From: Candidatus Hadarchaeota archaeon | GTDB taxonomy: Archaea; Hadarchaeota; Hadarchaeia; Hadarchaeales; Hadarchaeaceae | Direction of reading: 5' to 3' | NCBI GenBank assembly: GCA_964514965.1 | Contig: CAZETV010000001.1 | Span: forward strand, 663,063-695,062 | DNA length: 32,000 bases | Shown: positions 3,287 to 31,970 of the stretch, one piece after another | Numbering within the stretch: position 1 is the stretch's first letter | Layout of the letters: each line of letters begins with the position of its first letter | Position numbers and translations under genes: made by a program | Notes under the pieces: model-generated | Database searches by the model: none | Told to the model about the DNA's origin: nothing | The model's input: only the letters and a program-made list of their open reading frames with translations

Positions 3287-3361
3287 TGGAGCCGGGAGAG
3301 GGAATTGCACCCCCGTGAGCGGTTCTGCAGACCGCTGCCTGAGCTACTCGGCCACCCCGGC
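3287..3361 (-). tRNA. tRNA-Cys (anticodon GCA), CCA encoded, U73 discriminator
   Basis: Hand-folded cloverleaf. Acceptor stem is GCCGGGG/UCCCGGC. Anticodon stem is GCGGU/ACCGC with loop CUGCAGA. T stem is GGGGG/CCCUC. The 5' half resembles M. jannaschii tRNA-Cys (GCCGGGG...AGGCAGCGG.CUGCAGA). Confidence 0.85.
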
Positions 3362-3375
3362 ACTTAAAATATAGA

Positions 3376-3390
3376 TATAACGGCGTTATA
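3376..3390. promoter_or_regulatory. perfect TATAACggcGTTATA palindrome between tRNA-Cys and the CopA-like gene
   Basis: Read directly. It overlaps the TATA-like boxes that could serve both divergent transcription units. Confidence 0.45.
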
Positions 3391-7092: not shown

Positions 7093-7107
7093 AATAACGC
7101 TGTTATA
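7093..7107. promoter_or_regulatory. TATAAC-N3-GTTATA-type palindrome (aATAACgctGTTATA) in the thi4 / COG1900 divergent intergenic region
   Basis: Read directly, with 1 mismatch. Confidence 0.35.
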
Positions 7108-7200: not shown

Positions 7201-8718
7201 GTGTTGACTAAAACCAAAGTTAACAAGTCGGTGGCTGAGATAAACGACCGAATCAGGCGCGGCGATGCGGTGATCGTGACAGCGGAGGAAATGGTAGAAA
7301 TCGTGAGAGAAAGAGGTGAAGTCGAAGCTGCTAAGGAAGTGGATGCGGTCACTACTGGCACCTTTGGGGCGATGTGCAGCTCGGGAACTTGGCTGAACTT
7401 TGGACACGCAGACCCGCCAATCAAAATGCAACGAGTATGGCTTAACGATGTCGAGGCGTATACAGGAGTTGCCGCTGTCGATGCATACATAGGTGCAACG
7501 CAGCTCAGCGAGACCCGCGGATTCGAGTATGGTGGAGGGCACGTTATCGAAGATCTGATCCGTGGAAAAGAGATGGAAGTCCGAGCGATCGCATACGGCA
7601 CCGATTGCTACCCGCGTAAGGAACTCGAGACCACCGTGACCAAGGACGACATTAATCAAGCTGTCCTCTGCAACCCCCGTAACGCCTACCAGCGCTACGT
7701 AGCAGCCACGAACTCGCGTGATGAAACTATCTACACCTACATGGGCACCCTGCTGCCGAACTACGGCAACGTAACATATTCGGGGTCCGGCAGCCTAAGC
7801 CCGCTCCACAACGACCCCAACTACGAAACAATCGGGATCGGGACGCGAATTTTCCTAGGGGGTGCTCAAGGCTACATATTCTGGGAGGGAACTCAACACG
7901 CCCCAACTAATGCAATGGGCACCATCATGACCGTCGGGAACTTGAAAGAAATGGACGCACGCTACATCAGGGGAGTAACGGTCGAAAAGTACGGGACTTC
8001 GCTCTACGTCGGCTTGGGGATTCCAATTCCAATTATAAACGAGAGAGTTGCAAAAACTACGGGCATAAGTGATGAGGAGATAAAAACAGACCTTACTGAC
8101 TACGGGGTTCCTCGAAGGAGCCGCCCTATTCTCAGGAAGGTTACCTATGCTGAATTGAAATCTGGGAAGATTGAAATCAACAACGATGAAGTACTCGTCA
8201 GCCCCTTGAGCAGCCTGAAGCGAGCGAGAGAAATCGCTGGCGTCTTAAAAAAGTGGATTGAAGAAAAAAGATTCTTCCTTTCTCAACCAGCGGAGAGACT
8301 GCCTATCGACCAAGTGTTCAAGCCAATGAAACAACTCGCAGGCGTCCCATTTGTCAGGGACGTTATGACACGAGAGGTAGTAACCGCCAAGCCGAGCGAC
8401 TCGATCGCCAGCGCGGCGAAGATACTTGCGAAGCGCAACTTCGACCATCTACCGATCGTAGATGCCAAAGGGAAACTCGTGGGAATAGCGACTTCGTGGG
8501 ACATCGCCGTGGCAGTCGGGACTGGTAAGAAGAAATTATCAGATGTTCTGACTTCCAAAGTTATCACGGCAACTGAGGACGAGCCAGTCGATGCTGTAGC
8601 GAGGAGACTTGAAAAACACAAAATCTCTGGGGTTCCTGTGATAAACGCCCGTGGCGAGCCCAGAGGAGTCCTGACGAGTCAGGATCTATCTAAGTTGTTG
8701 GGGGGACGAGGAAAATGA
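7201..8718 (+). CDS. homocysteine biosynthesis protein, COG1900 (DUF39) domain with tandem CBS domains (MJ0100/MA1821 family)
   Basis: VTAEEMVEIV, VTTGTFGAMCSSG, DPPIKM, NPRNAYQRY and YMGTLLP are colinear with MJ0100 as I recall it. The C-terminal ~130 aa form two CBS repeats. Confidence 0.85.
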   Translation: MLTKTKVNKSVAEINDRIRRGDAVIVTAEEMVEIVRERGEVEAAKEVDAVTTGTFGAMCSSGTWLNFGHADPPIKMQRVWLNDVEAYTGVAAVDAYIGATQLSETRGFEYGGGHVIEDLIRGKEMEVRAIAYGTDCYPRKELETTVTKDDINQAVLCNPRNAYQRYVAATNSRDETIYTYMGTLLPNYGNVTYSGSGSLSPLHNDPNYETIGIGTRIFLGGAQGYIFWEGTQHAPTNAMGTIMTVGNLKEMDARYIRGVTVEKYGTSLYVGLGIPIPIINERVAKTTGISDEEIKTDLTDYGVPRRSRPILRKVTYAELKSGKIEINNDEVLVSPLSSLKRAREIAGVLKKWIEEKRFFLSQPAERLPIDQVFKPMKQLAGVPFVRDVMTREVVTAKPSDSIASAAKILAKRNFDHLPIVDAKGKLVGIATSWDIAVAVGTGKKKLSDVLTSKVITATEDEPVDAVARRLEKHKISGVPVINARGEPRGVLTSQDLSKLLGGRGK

Positions 8719-9116
8719 CTCGAAAGATACTATTAAGGTACTCCACTCAGAAAGCCACAGAGCCCATTTTAACATCAGTAATCAAAGAAACTGAGACCCT
8801 GCCCAATATTCTGTACGCTGAAGTCGGCACAAAAGGTGGGGAGATACTGCTTTCAATCGATGCTTCTGACAAAGAGGTTGATAAAACAATCGCGCTGTTC
8901 AAGCAAAAAGGCATTGAGGTCCAGGAGATTAAACGCGCTATCCAACTCGACCATGATTCATGCTTCGACTGTGGGGCATGTCTCTCACTCTGTCCGACCA
9001 GCGCGCTGCACATGATTGACGACAAATCGGTCGAACTCGACGAGAACAAATGTATTTACTGCGAACTTTGCGTTCCATCATGTCCGGTGCGAGCACTCAA
9101 GCTATCAAAGTTCTAG
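8715..9116 (+). CDS. NIL domain - 2x[4Fe-4S] ferredoxin fusion (MA1822 family)
   Basis: The N-terminal ~75 aa are NIL-like. They are followed by CFDCGACLSLCP and CIYCELCVPSCP. The ATGA start/stop overlaps the upstream gene. Confidence 0.8.
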   Translation: MTRKILLRYSTQKATEPILTSVIKETETLPNILYAEVGTKGGEILLSIDASDKEVDKTIALFKQKGIEVQEIKRAIQLDHDSCFDCGACLSLCPTSALHMIDDKSVELDENKCIYCELCVPSCPVRALKLSKF

Positions 9117-9896
9117 GTGATTCAAATATACTCTCAAACTTGGTCCTTCAAGGAGACCAATCTCTACATAAAGTGCGACGATGAGCGGGCGATAGACTCT
9201 GCAATCGACGCCAGCTTACAGGCTCGAAACGATATCGAGCGATACATCCTCACAAATCCAGAGTTTCGATGGTCGCTTGAGCCCCTGAAGTTAGAAGGCG
9301 AACATCCAAAAGTCATCGAGCTTATGCTGAAAGCAGGTGAACTCGCAGGGATAGGGCCCTTTGCAGCTGTTGCCGGAGCCATCTCACAAATCGCAGCTGA
9401 AGCAGCACGAAGTGCAGGCGCCGAAAACGTGCTGGTGGAAAATGGAGGAGATATGACCATAATCGGCGCTAGAGATTTTCATATAGGGATTTTCGCGGAC
9501 GACACACAGAACTCCGGAAAAATAGGCTTCCTTGTTCGGGCTGTGGAGTTGCCAATAGGAATCTGCACGAGTTCGGGAACGATCGGTCATTCGCTGAGTT
9601 TTGGACAATCAGATGCTGTCGTAGCGGTTGCGCGCGAAACTTCGGTGGCGGACGCAGCAGCTACCTCAATAGCGAACTCGGTTAGGGGAGAGAACCTCAA
9701 ATCTTCAATCAAGCAGGGGCTGAGCCGGGCCAAACGCATCCGAGAAATTAGGGGGTGTCTGATCATGAGGAGAGAACACATTGGAACTTGGGGCAAGCTC
9801 CCTGAGCTAATTCAGGTATCGCCAGAATCCCATGAACTTTCAAACACCCAGAAAAAATATCAAAATTACAAGCCAGAACAAGCATTGATTTTATAG
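9117..9896 (+). CDS. UPF0280 / ApbE-like protein (COG2122, MA1715-like)
   Basis: GICTSSGTIGHSLSFGQSDAVVAVA is the signature I associate with UPF0280. The GTG start directly follows the upstream TAG. Confidence 0.65.
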   Translation: MIQIYSQTWSFKETNLYIKCDDERAIDSAIDASLQARNDIERYILTNPEFRWSLEPLKLEGEHPKVIELMLKAGELAGIGPFAAVAGAISQIAAEAARSAGAENVLVENGGDMTIIGARDFHIGIFADDTQNSGKIGFLVRAVELPIGICTSSGTIGHSLSFGQSDAVVAVARETSVADAAATSIANSVRGENLKSSIKQGLSRAKRIREIRGCLIMRREHIGTWGKLPELIQVSPESHELSNTQKKYQNYKPEQALIL

Positions 9897-14798: not shown

Positions 14799-14813
14799 TA
14801 TAACACTGTTATA
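14799..14813. promoter_or_regulatory. perfect TATAACactGTTATA palindrome overlapping the TTTTATATAA box upstream of the Met/Cys mini-ORF
   Basis: Read directly. Confidence 0.45.
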
Positions 14814-14973: not shown

Positions 14974-15750
14974 ATGCCCATTGAGACACTAGTCGCGATC
15001 GTGCTGGTCGGGGCCTTGGGCGGATATCTCGGCGGAATCGTGGGGGCGGGCATAGGAGCGACCGTAGTCCCTGGCCTAATTTTGCTCGGCATTGACCCCA
15101 TCATCGCGATTGGCTCAAGCTTGCTGCTACATGTGCTGATAGCTCCTCTTGGTGGGATCGCTCACTACAAATTTGGACACGTACGGCGAAGAATCTTAGT
15201 TCCATTGGTTCTAGCTGGGGTTCTGGGGGCCTTCTTCGGTGCCAACGCTTCCACACACCTACCTGCAGATGTGTTGAAGCTGCTCGTAGGCATCTCAGCC
15301 ATTGCTGCAGGCCTGCTAATCACAGTTAGATACCCTAGAACCAACCAGCGAAAGTTAACACTCCCCTCTGTCAAAAAAAGACTTCGGGTAGTCAGTACAC
15401 CCACGATAACAGCAATCGCCCTTATCGTGGGACTTTTATATGGGGCGTCGGGTGCAATGTGGGGCTCGATCGGTGTCCCTCTTTTAATTATAGTTGGAGT
15501 CACCCCTCACGTTGCGGTTGGTTCATCTCTGCTGGCACGATCCATCGTCGCCTTGGCCGGATCCTCAACCTACTACTTCCTGAACGGCATTCAAGCGGAC
15601 ATCATTCTATCGTTACTCGCTGGGGGGTCAATTGCTATTTTGCTCGGCGCACTCACCACAAAACGCCTTCCGTCCAGAAAGTTAAAACTAATCGTGGGCG
15701 TAGCTGTTATCGTGCTCGGCGCATCCGTCTTGGTGAAACAGATGATTTAA
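14974..15750 (+). CDS. TauE/SafE (DUF81) family anion permease, putative sulfate/sulfite transporter
   Basis: 258 aa and polytopic, with Gly-rich helices arranged in two similar halves, as is typical of DUF81. A GTGAGGGG SD lies upstream. Confidence 0.8.
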   Translation: MPIETLVAIVLVGALGGYLGGIVGAGIGATVVPGLILLGIDPIIAIGSSLLLHVLIAPLGGIAHYKFGHVRRRILVPLVLAGVLGAFFGANASTHLPADVLKLLVGISAIAAGLLITVRYPRTNQRKLTLPSVKKRLRVVSTPTITAIALIVGLLYGASGAMWGSIGVPLLIIVGVTPHVAVGSSLLARSIVALAGSSTYYFLNGIQADIILSLLAGGSIAILLGALTTKRLPSRKLKLIVGVAVIVLGASVLVKQMI

Positions 15751-25006: not shown

Positions 25007-26506
25007 ATGAAGCACACGTTAGAAATCCCAACCGACGATATCATGCGATTCACGGACAAGTACTCACTGGGAAGGGACAAGGGAATGGGCTCCCGGCACT
25101 TCCTGAGAATAAAAGTGCTCGCGGGCACGCTGACCTCTGAACAGCTTCGTGAGATTGCGCAGATGGCGGACGACTACAGCAAGGGCTATGCTGAGATAAC
25201 TGACCGCCAAGACATTCAACTGCACTGGGTCCAAGGAAAGGACGCGCCGGAAGTCTTCACTCGGCTTGAAAAGCTCGGTTTCACCACAGACAAATGTGGC
25301 CAAGCTTTTCCTGGCGCACGTTATGGTGATGTGCGGAATGTCGTCGTTTGTCCGATTACTGGTGTAAACAAAAACGAACTCATTGATGTCTCACCTCTCG
25401 CCACGCAAATAAACGAGTTTTTCCTAGGTAACCGGAACTTCCTTGACATGCCAAAGAAATTCAAGATTTCTATCACGGGCTGCGAGCTTTGCTGCACTAA
25501 GCCAGAAATTCAAGATTTAGGTCTGTTCGCGGTAAAGCACGAAGGCAAGATCGGATTTGCGGCTCTCGTGGGCGGGTCGGTCGGCTCGACGCAGCCAGGA
25601 CCAAGGCTCGCGAAGCCGCTGGGCGTTTTCATCAAGCCCGACGAAGTTTTAGAAGTGGCAAAAACGCTGGCGGAGATTCACCGTGACTACAGCAACCGTG
25701 AAAGCAAGACCAAAGCGCGGTTCAAGTGGATTGTCGACAGCTGGGGCGTAGAACGAGTGAGGGAGAAACTAGAGGAGAAACTTGGGAAGAAGCTTGAGCG
25801 ATATGAGCTCAAACCAAAGATTAGTGGCGAGGAGCATATTGGTGTGCAAAGACAGAAAGACGACCACTATTTTATCAATATCCCACTAATCGGGGGAATC
25901 CTCTCGAGCGAGTTAATACGAAAGGTAGCTAATATTGCCAGCAAATTCGGGAGTAGTGAATTAAGACTCACTCCCTTCCAAAACTTAATTCTAATCAACA
26001 TTCACAAGAAGAAGGTCGACGAGGCTTTAAAGCAGCTTGAGGGAACGGGCCTGCCAGTGAAGGGCACACCACTTCGCTGGACGACCATTGGCTGCGCCGC
26101 AGATTTCTGCGGGAAGTCAATCGAGCCCTACCCGAAACAGATGGCGAAGGAAATAGTTGATTACTTGGAGAACCGCTTCGGTGTTACGCTAAACGATTTG
26201 AAGCTAAAGTTGCTCGTAACTGGCTGTCCTAACGACTGTGGCTTGCGTGCAATAGGGAACATTGGATTGCTCGGTGTGCAGGTAAAGAAGAACGAGAGTA
26301 AAGAATTTTATAACATTTACTTAGGCGGCACCTTGGGCGCAAACGCGTCGCTCTCTGAACTCGTGGAGAAAATGCTAAAGCCAGAGCAGGTAAAAACAAT
26401 GATTGAGAAGCTCGTCGTGGGGTGCCTGAAGGAAGGATTCAAAGACTTTGGGGAGTTCTGCCGCGCTCATAAGCTGGAAGAGCTGAAATTGATTGCGACC
26501 GAATAA
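25007..26506 (+). CDS. sir: siroheme/[4Fe-4S] sulfite (nitrite/sulfite) reductase, monomeric two-repeat type
   Basis: The C-terminal half carries GCAADFCGKS...TGCPNDCGLRA (cluster/siroheme Cys ligands). The N-terminal half carries a related ITGCELCC. The context is sat, aprAB and siroheme genes. Confidence 0.8.
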   Translation: MKHTLEIPTDDIMRFTDKYSLGRDKGMGSRHFLRIKVLAGTLTSEQLREIAQMADDYSKGYAEITDRQDIQLHWVQGKDAPEVFTRLEKLGFTTDKCGQAFPGARYGDVRNVVVCPITGVNKNELIDVSPLATQINEFFLGNRNFLDMPKKFKISITGCELCCTKPEIQDLGLFAVKHEGKIGFAALVGGSVGSTQPGPRLAKPLGVFIKPDEVLEVAKTLAEIHRDYSNRESKTKARFKWIVDSWGVERVREKLEEKLGKKLERYELKPKISGEEHIGVQRQKDDHYFINIPLIGGILSSELIRKVANIASKFGSSELRLTPFQNLILINIHKKKVDEALKQLEGTGLPVKGTPLRWTTIGCAADFCGKSIEPYPKQMAKEIVDYLENRFGVTLNDLKLKLLVTGCPNDCGLRAIGNIGLLGVQVKKNESKEFYNIYLGGTLGANASLSELVEKMLKPEQVKTMIEKLVVGCLKEGFKDFGEFCRAHKLEELKLIATE

Positions 26507-26515
26507 GGTGATGGA

Positions 26516-26776
26516 GTGGCTGAAAAAGTTGGTTTAAAACCTGCCGGGAAGGGGCACTACACGATGGACGCTCGAGGATATACTTGCCCCTACCCTGAGC
26601 TCTTCGCGCGGAGAGCCTTAGAAAAACTTGCGTCAGGTGATGTGTTTGAATTCATTATCGACAACATGCCCTCCTGCGAGACGGTTCCAGCCGCTGCCAA
26701 GGAGCTAGGACACAAGGTATTAGAAGTCATGAAAATCGATGACACCAGTTGGAAAATCATCATCAAAAAAAGTTGA
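26516..26776 (+). CDS. tusA: TusA/SirA-family sulfurtransferase
   Basis: MDARGYTCPYPELFARRALEKL contains the CPxP active-site motif. Confidence 0.8.
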   Translation: MAEKVGLKPAGKGHYTMDARGYTCPYPELFARRALEKLASGDVFEFIIDNMPSCETVPAAAKELGHKVLEVMKIDDTSWKIIIKKS

Positions 26777-27269: not shown

Positions 27270-28430
27270 CTATCGCATAAGCGCGGCCAACAGGGCGAAC
27301 ACGGCGACCGCGAATCCCGCACCCACGTAAAACGTCACGTCAAGCCCACCAGCGACGAAGACCAGCCCCATCAGCATGGGACCCAAGGTCTGCCCCAGCC
27401 GCAAGACCGTTCCGTTTATCGACATGAACGCCGCGCGGTGCCTCATGGGTGCCAATCCAGTCAAAGAGGTCTGGAGACTAGGTATGTTCAAGCCGTGGGC
27501 GACCCCAAATATCATTGTGGGCACTAACAAAACTGCTAGGTTGGGGCAAAGGGTATCATTACCAATGCCAGGATGTACAAAGCGAAGGCGGTCTTGAGAA
27601 GCGTCTTCCACGAGTATGTTTTCGCTAACCTCCACAGCTGCGATGCTGTCACCGCTGTGGAGAAGGACATGCTCGTCATTATCAAACCTATCACGAGCGC
27701 GGGAGCTCCAAACGAATTCCTAATCAAAAACGGGAAATATGTCAAGTAGGAGCCGTAGAGAATGATGAAAGTTATGGCGCCAGCTGTGAAGAGCGCGAAC
27801 GCCTGACGGTTCCTCATACTATGCCATACCCCCACCAGATACAACCTGAGCGGTTGGGTGTTCTTCGGCTCGGGATTTTTCAAAAAAAAGCAAGACAATG
27901 AATCCGATTGGGATGGCGACGAGAGAAAGGAGGAAAGGGTAGTACCACCCCAACATCGCGAGCGCCCCTCCAAGAGCCGGATAGCTCGCCGTCCCTACGC
28001 TCAGCACGCTTGCATTGTATCCCATGGCGGTCGCGCGCTCCCTTCCCGAGTAAAGGTCACCGATGAGTGTGATATTAAGTGAAGCGAGGGATGCGGCACC
28101 TATTCCTTGAAAGAAACTGAGGGCTAGCAGAATGTTGAAATCTCGTGCGAACGTACATGTGCCTCCAGCTATACCGAAGAGCATCAGCGATGGGATGAGA
28201 ACCGTCTTCCTTCCCCATCGGTCAGCTAGTATACCCAAAATCGGCGTGAGTAGTACTCCAGGGAAGGTAAAAATCGTGATGAGCAACCCTACATCCTGTG
28301 TCGGGATATTCAGTTCCTGTGCCACCATCGGGAAAGCAAGGGTAATGCTAGCGACACCCAGGACGGCCATCAGGGTGATGCTGAATATGATTAGGAGGTT
28401 CGTTTCCCGGTAAAGTTTTCTTTCGCTCAT
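27270..28430 (-). pseudogene. MFS transporter split into three frames
   Basis: ORFs 27819..28430, 27536..27973 and 27270..27635 together read as one 12-TM MFS protein (ILADRWGRK motif). One frame change is at the A8/T8 run (27882-27889) and the other is near the G4 run at about 27544. Confidence 0.8.
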
Positions 28431-28729: not shown

Positions 28730-29117
28730 TCACCCCTCTAAATTTTTCACAAGTTGCTTAACTTTCTCCCTAATCACATTTCTAACTTCTCGGAATTTTT
28801 CTATGGACTTGCCATCTGGATCCTCAATGCCCCAGTCTTCGGCCTCAACCATCGCGCTAGGGCAAATGTCACTAACCACACACACCATGGTTATAACTCG
28901 ACCAACATCGCCAAACATCTCAAAAGTCAACAGTTTTGGCTTCACTTGGCTGATATCGATTCCAACTTCTTTCATTACCTAAATCGCAAAAGGGTTTACA
29001 CTATGGGCAGGTCTTGTTCCAGCGCTGCTCGCCGTCGCTATCTTTGACATTTGATTGAAAAATGCTTCTGCCATTTGGCTGCGACAGGAGTTCTCCACAC
29101 ACGAATAGAACTTTCAA
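28730..29117 (-). pseudogene. arsC: LMW-PTP-type arsenate reductase ArsC with a frameshift and an in-frame TAG
   Basis: TTG 29117 gives KVLFVC, and then the frame is lost at a (GT)3 run. The next frame gives CVENSCRSQMAEAFFN (CX5R P-loop)...VNPFAI-TAG(28979-28981)-VMKEVGIDIS... Confidence 0.75.
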
Positions 29118-29126
29118 TACCCTCAC

Positions 29127-30143
29127 CTAGCTGGAAACTTTGTCGATGACCGCAACGAATCCCTTCAAAATCATCGAAAGAGTCTCTTCGAACTTCTTCC
29201 TATCGAGGGCGACCTTCTCCAATCCATCGGGAAATTTAATCGTCAGAATCAAATCAAGCCAGTTCTCGCGAGGAATCACAGTGCTCTCTCCTCCCAGCCC
29301 CGCAAGCAGTTCCTCCGCCATCTCGATCGATTTTTGAGCCTCCTGCTCCGATTTGAACTTCAGAGGGTAGTGGATGATCGCCGTAGCCATGAGCCCCACT
29401 TCATCCTTGTTGAGGTAGAACCGGAAGACCTTCCCCTCGAATTCACCATAGAAGTGATCAGTGCTCTTGTCAAATCCTAGCTCGACGAAAGCCTCTTTCA
29501 AATGCTTCGGAACCTTGTCCATTACGCACCCGCAGAGTGCCGCCGTTAATGTAGGCTCAACCAACAAATTGACGAGTTTAACGAACTGATCGAACGGAAT
29601 ACCAATTGCGAGTTCATTCTCATTATAGCCAGCGATGTCCCTCGCTCCCCCGCATAACAGTGTCAGGTTCGGTCTTTTCTCTACGTAGGGTAGGGCCGTC
29701 ACCTCTCCAGCTATAGCTGAGGCTTCACTCGTCATGCTTGCCTCAAGCCGCTTTCGGGTCGATCGGTGCAACACCTGCAAAATCTGCATCATTCGCGCTG
29801 GATCGGTTATCGTGATCACTACGTCTGGCTCTTGCTCGCTTTTCTCAAAAGGTGCCACTAAAACCGACTTCGTCCGAGCCGGTTTCACTCGAGGATAAAT
29901 ATCTACATACTTCGGCTCTGTGAACCCTAGAATCACTCGAGCGGTGAAGTTGTGAAGGTCGTTCTCGGTTATCAAGTAAGATTCGCCCTCATGCGCTGCT
30001 TTCCGGACGAACTCGCAGAATAGCGAGGGCGCCTTAGGCCGCGGGGCACTGATTTCCTCGTCTGAAATTTTTATCGCCACGGGACTAGTTGGGAGCTGAA
30101 AGAACTTCTTGAACTTTTTTGAAAGCTCCTCTAAACTTTTCAC
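29127..30143 (-). CDS. DUF169 (COG2043)-like protein with an extra ~125-aa C-terminal domain
   Basis: The N-terminal ~210 aa (PVAIKI...LFCEFVRKAAHEG...RVILGF...LLCGGARD) resemble the DUF169 family as I remember it. The GTG start directly abuts the SepCysS TAA and has a GAGGTGGA SD. Confidence 0.55.
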   Translation of the reverse strand: MKSLEELSKKFKKFFQLPTSPVAIKISDEEISAPRPKAPSLFCEFVRKAAHEGESYLITENDLHNFTARVILGFTEPKYVDIYPRVKPARTKSVLVAPFEKSEQEPDVVITITDPARMMQILQVLHRSTRKRLEASMTSEASAIAGEVTALPYVEKRPNLTLLCGGARDIAGYNENELAIGIPFDQFVKLVNLLVEPTLTAALCGCVMDKVPKHLKEAFVELGFDKSTDHFYGEFEGKVFRFYLNKDEVGLMATAIIHYPLKFKSEQEAQKSIEMAEELLAGLGGESTVIPRENWLDLILTIKFPDGLEKVALDRKKFEETLSMILKGFVAVIDKVSS

Positions 30144-31337
30144 TTATTCCACCTCAACACCGTAAGCTCGAGCGATTTCGTAAAATGCATCGACGACTTT
30201 CTGGAGCTGCTCCTTGGTCAACCCATAAGTGTTGAGCTTCATCATCTTGGTCATCCCCGCGTGAATACCCGCAATTTTCCTTTTCTTGAGTTCCTCATAC
30301 AGGAAGAAACCTCTCCGCGGGTGTTTCTTCGCGACTTTGTGGAAGGACGGAGTTTCAAAGGCTACCAATGTATGTTGTCGTGGGCGCTCCCCAAGTTGGT
30401 GGAAGTCTTTAATGCGTTCGAACTCCTTGACCAACCACCTAACCTTTTCCACCTCCTCATCCCAACGCTTGACCCGCTCGACCACATGTGGAAAACTCGC
30501 CATCAACGTCGCGATGGGGGCACCAAAGACCGGCGGGCACCCAAAAAGGTAGACATCTTTCTTGGTGAAAGCACGACCACTCCATGGCCCCTTAATCGTC
30601 GAAGTTCGGAATACCTTTCCCGAGAACTCATAGGTGGTGGCGAGCATTCCAATAGGACCACTCGATGACCACGACTTATGCCCACTACAAACCAAGAAAT
30701 CAACCCCCAGTTTCTTCCCATCGACAGGCATCACGCCCGCAGTATAAGCAGCGTTGAGAATGTAGGGCACTCCGTATTCCTTCGCTATCTCCCCTACCCC
30801 AGCGGCATCGACGAGGTTCCCGTAACGGTAGTCCACATGCGTGAGCAAAATTGCCGCTGGAAGCTCTCCTGTTTCCCGCTTGACCTCCTCAATCTTCGCC
30901 GCGTAATCATCGATTTTTATTTTGAATTCGGGATATCCTCCGTGAGGCACTTCAACTATTTTGAGGCCGTTAACTTCAGCTGCGATATAGGTGGTGTAAT
31001 GCGCAAGCGAGTCAATCACAATTGTATCGCCTGGCTCCGCGATTGACTTGAAGATTGCCTGCTTTGCGCCCCGAGCTCCAGGCGTGAATTGGACTTCATC
31101 CATATTCAAGAACTTTGCAACATCACTTGCAAAATCTAAAATAGGCGGCGTTTTTACTAGGTCTATACGGCTCTCAAGACAGAGGTCGCAGGTGCTGTAT
31201 CCATCGCCGAAGGAAAGCAAAGCCTTTCTGGACTCGGGCGGCAACACACCACCGCGTTGGATGGGATGGACGTTAATCCAACTCTCGTCAACCACCCGGC
31301 GAAGGTTTTTGTATTTATCGACATTTATTTTAACCAT
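30144..31337 (-). CDS. pscS: O-phosphoseryl-tRNA(Cys):Cys-tRNA synthase SepCysS
   Basis: It is colinear with Archaeoglobus SepCysS as I recall it: IQRGGVLPPESRKALLSFGDGYSTCDLC, SGHKSWSSSGPIG (PLP Lys), LMASFPHVVERVKRWDEEVEK and GFFLYEELKKRKI.GI. ATG 31337 with a GGTGAG SD is preferred over ATG 31358. Confidence 0.92.
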   Translation of the reverse strand: MVKINVDKYKNLRRVVDESWINVHPIQRGGVLPPESRKALLSFGDGYSTCDLCLESRIDLVKTPPILDFASDVAKFLNMDEVQFTPGARGAKQAIFKSIAEPGDTIVIDSLAHYTTYIAAEVNGLKIVEVPHGGYPEFKIKIDDYAAKIEEVKRETGELPAAILLTHVDYRYGNLVDAAGVGEIAKEYGVPYILNAAYTAGVMPVDGKKLGVDFLVCSGHKSWSSSGPIGMLATTYEFSGKVFRTSTIKGPWSGRAFTKKDVYLFGCPPVFGAPIATLMASFPHVVERVKRWDEEVEKVRWLVKEFERIKDFHQLGERPRQHTLVAFETPSFHKVAKKHPRRGFFLYEELKKRKIAGIHAGMTKMMKLNTYGLTKEQLQKVVDAFYEIARAYGVEVE

Positions 31338-31413
31338 TAACTCACCTTTGAAAAACATTCACAGGTTATAACCCTAAATAACCTTCTTTATAAATTGGGA
31401 GTAGTTGGTTAAT

Positions 31414-31970
31414 ATGGCCGAAGAACTCACCGATCGATTGCTTCGCCAGCCCCCGACGACCGTGGTAGATTTAGTGATGACCGCGAATGGGCTGAAAACT
31501 GGCTCAGAGATTTTGCGAAATCAACGAGATGAAGAGCTTGAGCGGATTATCAAGGAAATGGGATTAATCTATGAGTGGAAAGACGGGTTCTATCTTGTTG
31601 CTTGCTCGAAGGAAGATATAACCAAGCAGGTACCGACTCGGTCTCGCGCGGACAGTGGTTCGGCATCCCCGAGTGCTATATCCAGAACTATCAGGGAAAA
31701 GACAAGGAGGAGCTTCGAAAGCGGCTCACGCTCGAGGAACTCGAACTCCTCGAACGGAGCGAGGGCGTGCCTGATGAGTTCTACCTCTGATCGATGGGTT
31801 ACATCCCATGCAACATGAGGTGCAAACACACTTTAGATCGTGGGCAAAAAACGCGCGCTGCGCTTGACCAAATTGACTCACGCCTCTGGCAAAAGTTCAG
31901 AAATTTCCACATCCACCGAAGACTCGCAGAGTACGGCGGAGAAATCAGAGTGGCAGAAAGGCGAAAATAG
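31414..31970 (+). pseudogene. divergent hypothetical gene, apparently disrupted (one frameshift plus an in-frame TGA)
   Basis: MAEELTDRLL...FYLVACSKEDITKQ is in frame 1. DSVSRGQWFGIPECYIQNYQGKDKEELRKRL...EFYL-TGA(31788-31790)-SMGYIPCNMRCKHTLDRGQ... is in another frame. A TTTATAAA box lies ~25 nt upstream of ATG 31414. Confidence 0.4.

Follow-up and report, generated by a model that had tools for sequence, protein, structure and literature searches.

A candidate accessory protein for tRNA-dependent cysteine synthesis encoded directly behind SepCysS in Hadarchaeota and other lineages

The SepRS/SepCysS pathway is the sole route to Cys-tRNA in many anaerobic archaea and is also employed in genetic-code expansion. 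SepCysS works in vitro with sulfide or with surrogate donors. The enzyme is not known to have a dedicated physiological sulfur donor, and its only known helpers are SepCysE, an adaptor of class I methanogens, and the co-occurring COG1900 and COG2122 genes. Here a protein is described which is encoded directly behind SepCysS in a genome of the Hadarchaeota. It begins with a domain of the DUF169/COG2043 family, continues with a Cys-Gly-Cys motif and a further domain, and is called DUF169L in the following. The stretch analysed, referred to as the window, comprises 32,000 nucleotides (C1:663063-695062) of a 1.28 Mb genome which is 94.5% complete and whose close relatives are labelled Hadarchaeota. 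As judged from sequence comparisons, DUF169L is most likely a new accessory protein for tRNA-dependent cysteine synthesis which is not homologous to those already described.

The closest functional analogue of DUF169L is SepCysE/SepCysSn, the component of the transsulfursome of class I methanogens (PDB 3wkr and 5x6b) which is thought to make tRNA-dependent cysteine synthesis efficient (PMC5424206, PMC8762117). Both are accessory proteins, putatively so in the case of DUF169L, which are encoded with SepCysS and accompany particular SepCysS clades only. The helical adaptor SepCysE carries a tRNA-binding domain but lacks catalytic cysteines, whereas DUF169L is an alpha/beta protein with four invariant cysteines and with sulfur carriers among its gene neighbours. 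No match of DUF169L to the SepCysE helices or to the tRNA-binding domain was obtained by sequence, by profile (all PDB entries, including 3wkr and 5x6b) or by Foldseek. COG1900 (HcyBio), NIL-ferredoxin, and COG2122 (MA1821/MA1822/MA1715) also co-occur with SepCysS and have been implicated in the use of sulfide for cysteine and homocysteine synthesis (PMC5424206). They are SepCysS-associated like DUF169L but unrelated to it, and in Hadarchaeota DUF169L marks an alternative SepCysS context to the operon formed by these three genes. TusA, DsrE/TusBCD, rhodanese, and SufE are cysteine proteins which pass on sulfane sulfur, as DUF169L would do in the role proposed below, and no homology to any of them was detected. 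The MetM/MetO/MoeZ/Mec system, a thiocarboxylate route to homocysteine (Hasebe 2024, as cited in bioRxiv 10.1101/2024.10.14.618325), and the CysM/CysO system, which makes cysteine by way of a thiocarboxylate, resemble the locus in that genes for ThrC-like, ThiS-like, ThiF-like E1, and JAB proteins also flank or share operons with SepCysS and DUF169L. These two systems act on free phospho-amino acids, and they contain neither a DUF169 protein nor SepCysS. For SepCysS itself, work cited in PMC5424206 and PMC9499178 (Liu 2012, Liu 2016) is quoted for a sulfur transfer by persulfide and disulfide chemistry on three cysteines and for its being regarded as an iron-sulfur protein. In the literature searched on DUF169, COG2043, PF02596, and IPR003748 no functional study was found, nor was a paper describing a SepCysS-DUF169 pair. 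The leads obtained were a Desulfovibrio fitness table, which has DUF169 beside a TauE sulfite exporter, a phylogenetic-profile link to YedE, and a single sentence on SepRS clusters.

The SepCysS gene of the window occupies positions 30144-31358 of the minus strand and codes for 404 amino acids. The protein was matched by TIGR02539 with 509.6 bits (cut-off 365.25) and by NF006810 with 572 bits (cut-off 301), and it keeps the catalytic cysteines C57, C60, and C274 as well as the pyridoxal phosphate (PLP) lysine K228 within the sequence SGHK. The three cysteine columns are 100% conserved in all groups compared. DUF169L follows on the same strand at 29127-30143 with 338 amino acids and a GTG start. 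The junction, read from the minus strand, is GTT GAG GTG GAA TAA GTG AAA, and the SepCysS stop codon TAA (30144-30146) adjoins the DUF169L start codon GTG (30141-30143) with a gap of 0 nt. The Shine-Dalgarno sequence GAGGTGGA of DUF169L (30148-30155, minus strand) lies within the last three SepCysS codons, is followed by A-TAA-GTG, and has a normal Shine-Dalgarno distance to the GTG. An earlier note on this DNA, made from the letters alone, had named the upstream reading frame SepCysS, had placed the 338 amino acid frame directly behind it with no base in between, and had seen the Shine-Dalgarno sequence inside the 3' end of SepCysS; all of this was borne out. SepCysS and DUF169L are a translationally coupled, co-inherited two-gene module.

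SepCysS was matched once in this genome. SepRS (553 bits) was located outside the window, as the earlier note had stated, at C1:640140-641708; the distance is about 21 kb in the upstream direction, and about 50 kb to the SepCysS-DUF169L pair. It stands in its usual translin(TRAX)-SepRS/endonuclease V setting, without DUF169. No match to CysRS above the cut-off was found in this genome. With SepRS present, CysRS absent, and a single SepCysS, no route to Cys-tRNA(Cys) is evident other than through the partnered enzyme.

DUF169L consists of two domains. The DUF169 core domain (residues 10-191, positions 29571-30116, minus strand) was matched by PF02596 with 112.2 bits (cut-off 27) over profile positions 1-207 of 209. 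Behind a linker the Cys-Gly-Cys motif C204-G205-C206 (29526-29534, minus strand) leads into a C-terminal alpha/beta domain (residues 207-338, positions 29130-29525, minus strand) with the order alpha-beta3-alpha-beta2-alpha. Residues 192-338 were matched neither by a model from Pfam or NCBIfam nor by a sequence from the PDB, and PDB sequence searches with the whole protein and with a profile of the C-terminal domain gave chance-level matches only. Ordinary DUF169/COG2043 proteins have about 230 amino acids and share the N-terminal core of 190 residues including C43 and C164; unlike them DUF169L adds the linker, the Cys-Gly-Cys motif, and the domain of about 130 amino acids. DUF169L was defined here as a DUF169 core, then [AS][LM]CGC, then a C-terminal domain with the motifs GF.K.TD.F.G and R.NW.D. 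The protein of the window agrees with this definition and adjoins, at a gap of 0 nt, a SepCysS with the signature C-x-x-C-[LFI]-E.

Fifty-four close clusters of DUF169L with conserved length and start were found, and an alignment of 56 diverse sequences, extending down to 27% identity, was used to identify conserved residues. DUF169L of the window has exactly four cysteines, C43, C164, C204, and C206, and all four are invariant in this alignment. Likewise invariant are G73, N159, G166, A167, R168, E177, and G181 in the core and G205, D229, F231, G233, and W295 in the remainder, with R292 nearly so. The DUF169 family at large has four core cysteines, equivalent to positions 43, 65, 145, and 164, all of which are found in 20 of 20 general DUF169 proteins and in nine of 11 long forms. 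The Cys-Gly-Cys motif and everything after it belong to the long form only and occur in none of the 20 ordinary DUF169 proteins. The protein of the window, with N65 and A145 in place of two of the core cysteines, is a DUF169 member by homology with a derived set of cysteines. When searched against 1.84 billion representative proteins, the profile of the C-terminal domain retrieved 43 clusters. Nearly all of them have 307-370 amino acids with the domain at about 190-340, the others being fragments or spurious repeat matches, so this domain is essentially confined to the architecture in which it is fused behind DUF169. In Methanosarcinia it always lies within open reading frames of about 336-370 amino acids. 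Compared with the nearest orthologue, the ratio of nonsynonymous to synonymous substitution rates (dN/dS) is about 0.07 for each domain; both are under purifying selection.

A structural model was calculated with AlphaFold2. With a deeper alignment it reached a mean predicted local distance difference test (pLDDT) score of 90, with a confident alpha/beta core and a confident C-terminal domain, while linker residues 196-203, directly in front of the Cys-Gly-Cys motif, remained below 50. The predicted template modelling score of 0.64 leaves the placement of the two domains relative to each other uncertain. For the DUF169 core no PDB counterpart was found by Foldseek, neither with the first model (pLDDT 81) nor with the improved one (pLDDT 90). 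The C-terminal domain matched 3cxj, an uncharacterised Methanothermobacter protein, as well as SycH, SycN-YscB, SicP, and YbjN/AmyR, with probabilities of 0.9-1.0 and template modelling scores of 0.5-0.61 normalised to the target. The type III secretion chaperones (SycH, SicP, SycN-YscB), YbjN, and 3cxj are protein-binding, dimerising modules whose fold is weakly resembled by that predicted for residues 207-338 or thereabouts. DUF169L differs from the secretion chaperones in coming from an archaeon, in having no secretion context, and in sharing no sequence similarity with them, and the likeness of the modelled fold suggests a docking role only. The earlier note had taken the first part of the protein for DUF169/COG2043 with conserved cysteines, which the PF02596 match over residues 10-191 confirmed, and had recognised nothing in the remainder. 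The latter holds for sequence families, but the predicted fold, with its weak resemblance to these chaperones and YbjN, is probably not wholly new. Nor did the check with hidden Markov models from Pfam and NCBIfam place the reading frame in any characterised family. As a separate candidate for the C-terminal domain tRNA-Thr-ED was considered, a SepCysS-associated editing-domain homologue which adjoins clade VII SepCysS (Mukai 2017). It was rejected, as there was no Pfam match at E <= 1, no DTD or ThrRS structure appeared in the Foldseek results, and the fold differs.

A scan of one genome per species yielded 61 DUF169L loci. This contig scan used motifs of the long form and is hence blind to other forms; how often SepCysS occurs without the partner was taken from separate whole-genome searches. 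Of the 58 loci with enough flanking sequence, about 55 have SepCysS as the next gene upstream in the same orientation, and the intergenic distance ranges from -4 to +9 nt in most loci. The pair occurs in Hadarchaeota, Methanoperedenaceae/ANME-2, Methanococcoides, Methanolobus, Methanohalophilus, Geoglobus, Hydrothermarchaeota, with a reversed gene order in one locus, one metagenome-assembled genome (MAG) of the Odinarchaeia, and one bacterial MAG. Divergent members with 27-35% identity were paired with SepCysS in eight of nine distinct loci, in either order, and all eight partners pass the SepCysS subfamily cut-off. DUF169L precedes SepCysS in L098, in L100 (Odinarchaeia), in L096, where the pair is divergent from a sulfite reductase cluster, in L093 with the order HTH-TusA-DUF169L-SepCysS-Trx-TusA (HTH, helix-turn-helix; Trx, thioredoxin), and in L099, a MAG labelled "bacterium", with ThiS-ThiF-DUF169L-SepCysS-x-TusA-PALP. 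It follows SepCysS in L101 (ThiF-TusA-SepCysS-DUF169L-Trx) and in L102 and L103 (PALP-ThiS-ThiF-TusA-SepCysS-DUF169L). A pair which stays constant in either gene order, while the third genes around it change, points to selection on the pairing itself. The comparison of neighbourhoods across genomes, which the earlier note had proposed, thus found an adjacency which is not unique to this genome: over 60 loci, belonging to several phyla, have it in one order or the other.

The SepCysS proteins which have DUF169L as a neighbour differ from the others. In a tree of 69 SepCysS sequences, 39 unpartnered sequences and two Hadarchaeum cases with a short form of DUF169L were separated from the partnered ones by a branch with an SH-aLRT support of 94. 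One unpartnered sequence (L091) fell within the partnered Hadarchaeota clade, which looks like a secondary loss of the partner. The residues after the CxxC motif are [LFI]-E in 25 of 27 partnered SepCysS, compared with PP, GG, RK, and the like in unpartnered ones, and more discriminating columns adjoin the third cysteine. SepCysS of the window has the motif CDLCLE at residues 57-62 and is a member of the DUF169L-partnered subgroup. Pairwise distances of SepCysS and of DUF169L correlate with r = 0.86, which is consistent with co-inheritance. Both SepCysS types are found on one contig of a genome of the same genus (G022).

SepCysS is present in every genome which has DUF169L. In Hadarchaeota SepCysS was found in 61 of 66 genomes and a DUF169L-type match in 17 of 66, which comprised nine intact long forms, five truncated forms of about 200 amino acids, two decayed genes beside SepCysS, and one ordinary DUF169 paralogue. 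In the Methanosarcinia sample SepCysS occurred in 297 and the long form in 51 of 301 genomes. The partnered SepCysS is the sole copy in the genome studied here, in Methanoperedens nitroreducens, and in Geoglobus; Methanococcoides has three SepCysS copies, one of them partnered. The truncated forms (L051 and L055 from Hadarchaeum sp.; G032-G036, G039) have about 198 amino acids, are 59-61% identical to the N-terminal domain of the window protein, and stop just short of the Cys-Gly-Cys position. They are encoded in opposite orientation between COG2122 and a SepCysS of the unpartnered type, and as they are intact in several genomes they may be functional in reduced form. Remnants of DUF169L beside SepCysS were seen as a stub of 85 amino acids at G040:C1:32320-32478 and as a gene with an internal stop at G004:C123:4343-4922. 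These remnants indicate that loss of the partner is ongoing within Hadarchaeota.

Genes of sulfur metabolism surround the pair. On the DUF169L side a decayed arsC is followed by a gene for a TusA-family sulfur carrier (26516-26776, plus strand, 86 amino acids, PF01206 with 71 bits), convergent with the SepCysS-DUF169L operon, and by an assimilatory-type sulfite/nitrite reductase (NIR_SIR; 25007-26506, plus strand, 499 amino acids, PF01077 with 188 bits and PF03460 with 127 bits) immediately upstream of TusA. A sulfite reductase recurs near the pair in Methanosarcinaceae, in Geoglobus, and in loci L096 and L097, and TusA lies within about 6 kb in seven of eight partnered Hadarchaeota loci compared with none of 19 unpartnered ones. 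On the divergent side of SepCysS a decayed DUF483-like gene, a ThrC-like PLP enzyme, a ThiS-ThiF fusion, and a JAB protease are encoded; in related loci, though not in this genome, TusA was called within the ThrC-like/ThiS-ThiF/JAB cluster. Unpartnered SepCysS of Hadarchaeota has a different context, the operon HcyBio(COG1900)-NIL/ferredoxin-COG2122-(ThiS-ThiF)-SepCysS. The window also contains HcyBio (COG1900 with CBS), NIL-ferredoxin, and an ApbE-like COG2122 (7201-9896, plus strand). In most other Hadarchaeota this operon has SepCysS as its last gene, but here SepCysS is missing behind it, which suggests a loss of the resident gene and a retention of the copy linked to DUF169L.

Conserved pairing, invariant cysteines, purifying selection, sulfur-related neighbours, and a SepCysS subgroup of its own speak for what the earlier note had proposed on the basis of the adjacency, a candidate accessory factor for tRNA-dependent cysteine synthesis, this support coming from comparative genomics. 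It appears somewhat probable that DUF169L acts as a subfamily-specific partner of SepCysS in a cysteine-based sulfur relay, possibly assisted by a metal or an iron-sulfur cluster. The sulfur would come as sulfide from the neighbouring sulfite reductase or as persulfide from TusA. It might be held on DUF169L as a persulfide at the Cys-Gly-Cys motif, which is joined to a flexible linker, or at a site formed from C43, C164, C204, and C206. The chaperone-like C-terminal domain could dock DUF169L onto the SepCysS dimer, where the sulfur would be handed to the C57/C60/C274 site of SepCysS, which would then turn the PLP-bound dehydroalanyl-tRNA into Cys-tRNA. The same sulfur pool probably also supplies the neighbouring homocysteine thiocarboxylate system (ThiS-ThiF, ThrC-like MetM, JAB). 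A more far-reaching version, which is put forward tentatively, would make DUF169L the physiological sulfur-donating subunit of a second, SepCysE-independent complex on which the co-evolved SepCysS subfamily depends. Here sulfide or TusA persulfide would be captured on a Cys-Gly-Cys/C43/C164 site and passed directly to SepCysS.

Several observations weigh against a sulfur-relaying partnership. Most SepCysS genes occur without DUF169L, and the partner is therefore no general requirement. One DUF169L (L097) stands in a PALP/ThiS/ThiF/JAB/sulfite reductase/TusA cluster with no adjacent SepCysS. The protein of the window has N65 and A145 and has thus lost two of the four DUF169 core cysteines, keeping C43 and C164, so that any cofactor site must differ from that of its relatives; cysteines 65 and 145 are lost in the long forms of Hadarchaeota, while all six are retained in those of Methanosarcinales and Geoglobus and in the divergent members. 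In Hadarchaeum species a truncated DUF169L is found which has neither the Cys-Gly-Cys motif nor the C-terminal domain. Neither the loss of two cysteines in Hadarchaeota nor this truncated form is explained by the reading favoured here. The fold matches of the C-terminal domain are weak, with E values of 5e-4 to 5e-2 at identities of 10-15%. The SepCysS tree was quick and unrooted, so the separation seen in it need not mean monophyly, neighbouring genes were called by a crude longest-frame rule, and related genomes are not independent samples.

Among the other explanations the one which survives best, though it is unlikely, regards DUF169L as serving sulfur mobilisation for the TusA/ThiS-ThiF thiocarboxylate system in general, with SepCysS as one client or as a co-regulated neighbour. 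DUF169L could for example load sulfur onto adenylated ThiS/MetO and so replace the rhodanese domain which is absent from the short ThiF; the archaeal ThiF proteins at the loci of the pair have no such domain, so that another sulfur donor could act there. Operons shared with ThiF and TusA, and apart from L101 also with ThiS and PALP, in L099, L101, L102, and L103 agree with such a function, as do the L097 locus, where DUF169L lies among PALP, ThiS, ThiF, JAB, sulfite reductase, and TusA with no adjacent SepCysS, the ThrC-like, ThiS-ThiF, and JAB genes just past SepCysS in this genome, and the MetM/MetO/MoeZ/Mec pathway, in which genes of this kind are known to act (Hasebe 2024, as cited in bioRxiv 10.1101/2024.10.14.618325). 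However, SepCysS is the one invariant immediate neighbour, while ThiS, ThiF, and TusA are variable, and in 37 Methanoperedens/ANME loci none of these three is found within about 6 kb. ThiS-ThiF also occurs at nine of 19 unpartnered Hadarchaeota SepCysS loci, without DUF169L, and the sequence of SepCysS differs according to its partner.

More doubtful is a role in the maintenance of SepCysS, either by insertion or repair of an iron-sulfur cluster or by reduction of the disulfide left after turnover, together with a thioredoxin-like neighbour. SepCysS has been described as an iron-sulfur protein in work referred to in PMC9499178 and PMC5424206, four invariant cysteines are a typical set of cluster ligands, and ordinary DUF169 proteins carry a four-cysteine core of their own. 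The pair has Thioredoxin_3 genes at its side in L093 and L101, in Methanosarcinaceae, and in part of the Methanoperedens loci, and in Geoglobus NifS-IscU lies downstream. Against this, half of the core cysteine set is gone in the Hadarchaeota proteins, and in the window no genes for iron-sulfur assembly adjoin the pair.

It is also rather improbable that DUF169L is a non-catalytic scaffold, a functional analogue of SepCysE/SepCysSn which tethers SepCysS to SepRS or to tRNA(Cys) and whose cysteines bind a structural metal. The resemblance of the C-terminal domain to peptide-binding, dimerising chaperone folds would suit a scaffold. The partnered SepCysS moreover have neither an N-terminal extension of the SepCysSN type nor a small upstream gene, while some unpartnered ones have extensions of about 65 amino acids, and DUF169 is occasionally found in SepRS gene clusters (Mukai 2022, PMC8762117). 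Yet DUF169L has no sequence similarity to the SepCysE structures or other PDB entries, SepRS, with its TRAX/endonuclease V surroundings and no DUF169 among them, is about 50 kb away, and the neighbours are sulfur carriers rather than translation factors. Where a flexible linker carries a vicinal Cys-Gly-Cys, redox or relay chemistry is in addition more usual than a structural role.

That the adjacency has no functional meaning and DUF169L an unrelated role, as might be supposed for a member of an uncharacterised family with a paralogue of its own in non-sulfur surroundings, is very improbable, since the adjacency has been kept in different phyla, with either order of the genes and with overlapping start and stop codons, the domain architecture is found in the SepCysS context only, and the SepCysS sequence changes with the partner. 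The paralogue in question is an ordinary DUF169 protein of 228 amino acids (C1:562150-562836) beside a major facilitator superfamily (MFS) transporter and several CBS-domain genes, and its surroundings contain no sulfur genes and no SepCysS.

Further observations concern the locus and the window. SepCysS and DUF169L share one reading frame with the TAA alone between them, as is also the case in L012, L013, L016, L017, and L019, and read-through of the TAA would yield a SepCysS-DUF169L fusion of 743 amino acids; no natural fusion of this kind was found among the 43 clusters of the family. The divergent promoter gap between SepCysS and the decayed DUF483-like gene measures 46 bp (31359-31404) and contains the palindrome GGTTATAACC at 31364-31373; the count of palindromes is not above chance. 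The DUF483-like gene (31405-31900, plus strand) is disrupted by a frameshift near residue 75, and in place of the FYLGSMGY of intact orthologues (186-193 amino acids; L016, L017, L019) it shows an in-frame stop. An MFS transporter gene between TusA and DUF169L (27270-28430, minus strand) is split into three overlapping reading frames of 203, 145, and 121 amino acids which represent successive parts of PF07690, and is a probable pseudogene. From an LMWP-type (low-molecular-weight phosphatase) arsenate reductase gene, arsC (28730-29117, minus strand), only a C-terminal fragment of 81 amino acids is open; intact arsC orthologues come after DUF169L in L012 and L019. DUF169L has kept its dN/dS of about 0.07 while these flanking arsC, MFS, and DUF483-like genes are broken.

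A tRNA-Cys(GCA) gene (3287-3361, minus strand) lies in the window and shares this 32-kb sulfur-rich region with SepCysS, HcyBio, ThiI-like, Thi4, TusA, and sulfite reductase genes. The inverted repeat ATAAC-N3-GTTAT is present in four perfect copies at 2458-2470, 3377-3389, 7094-7106, and 14800-14812 and is enriched in the window, with five matches at one mismatch or less compared with 0.48 expected. Copies precede a small HTH gene (2471-2860) and a reading frame at 14974; further copies lie 16 nt upstream of tRNA-Cys and in the divergent gap of Thi4 and HcyBio. The repeat is absent from the promoter gap of SepCysS-DUF169L.

DUF169L, being conserved, translationally coupled, equipped with four cysteines, and tracking a SepCysS subgroup, is a concrete candidate for the natural sulfur supplier of SepCysS, and Methanococcoides, Methanolobus, Methanohalophilus, and Geoglobus are cultured carriers of the pair. 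The pair connects tRNA-dependent cysteine synthesis to the TusA and thiocarboxylate networks in organisms without sulfur mobilisation based on cysteine desulfurase. If DUF169L is indeed a sulfur-donating subunit, this would reveal for these lineages the in vivo sulfur source of SepCysS and would provide a first function for the DUF169/COG2043 family.

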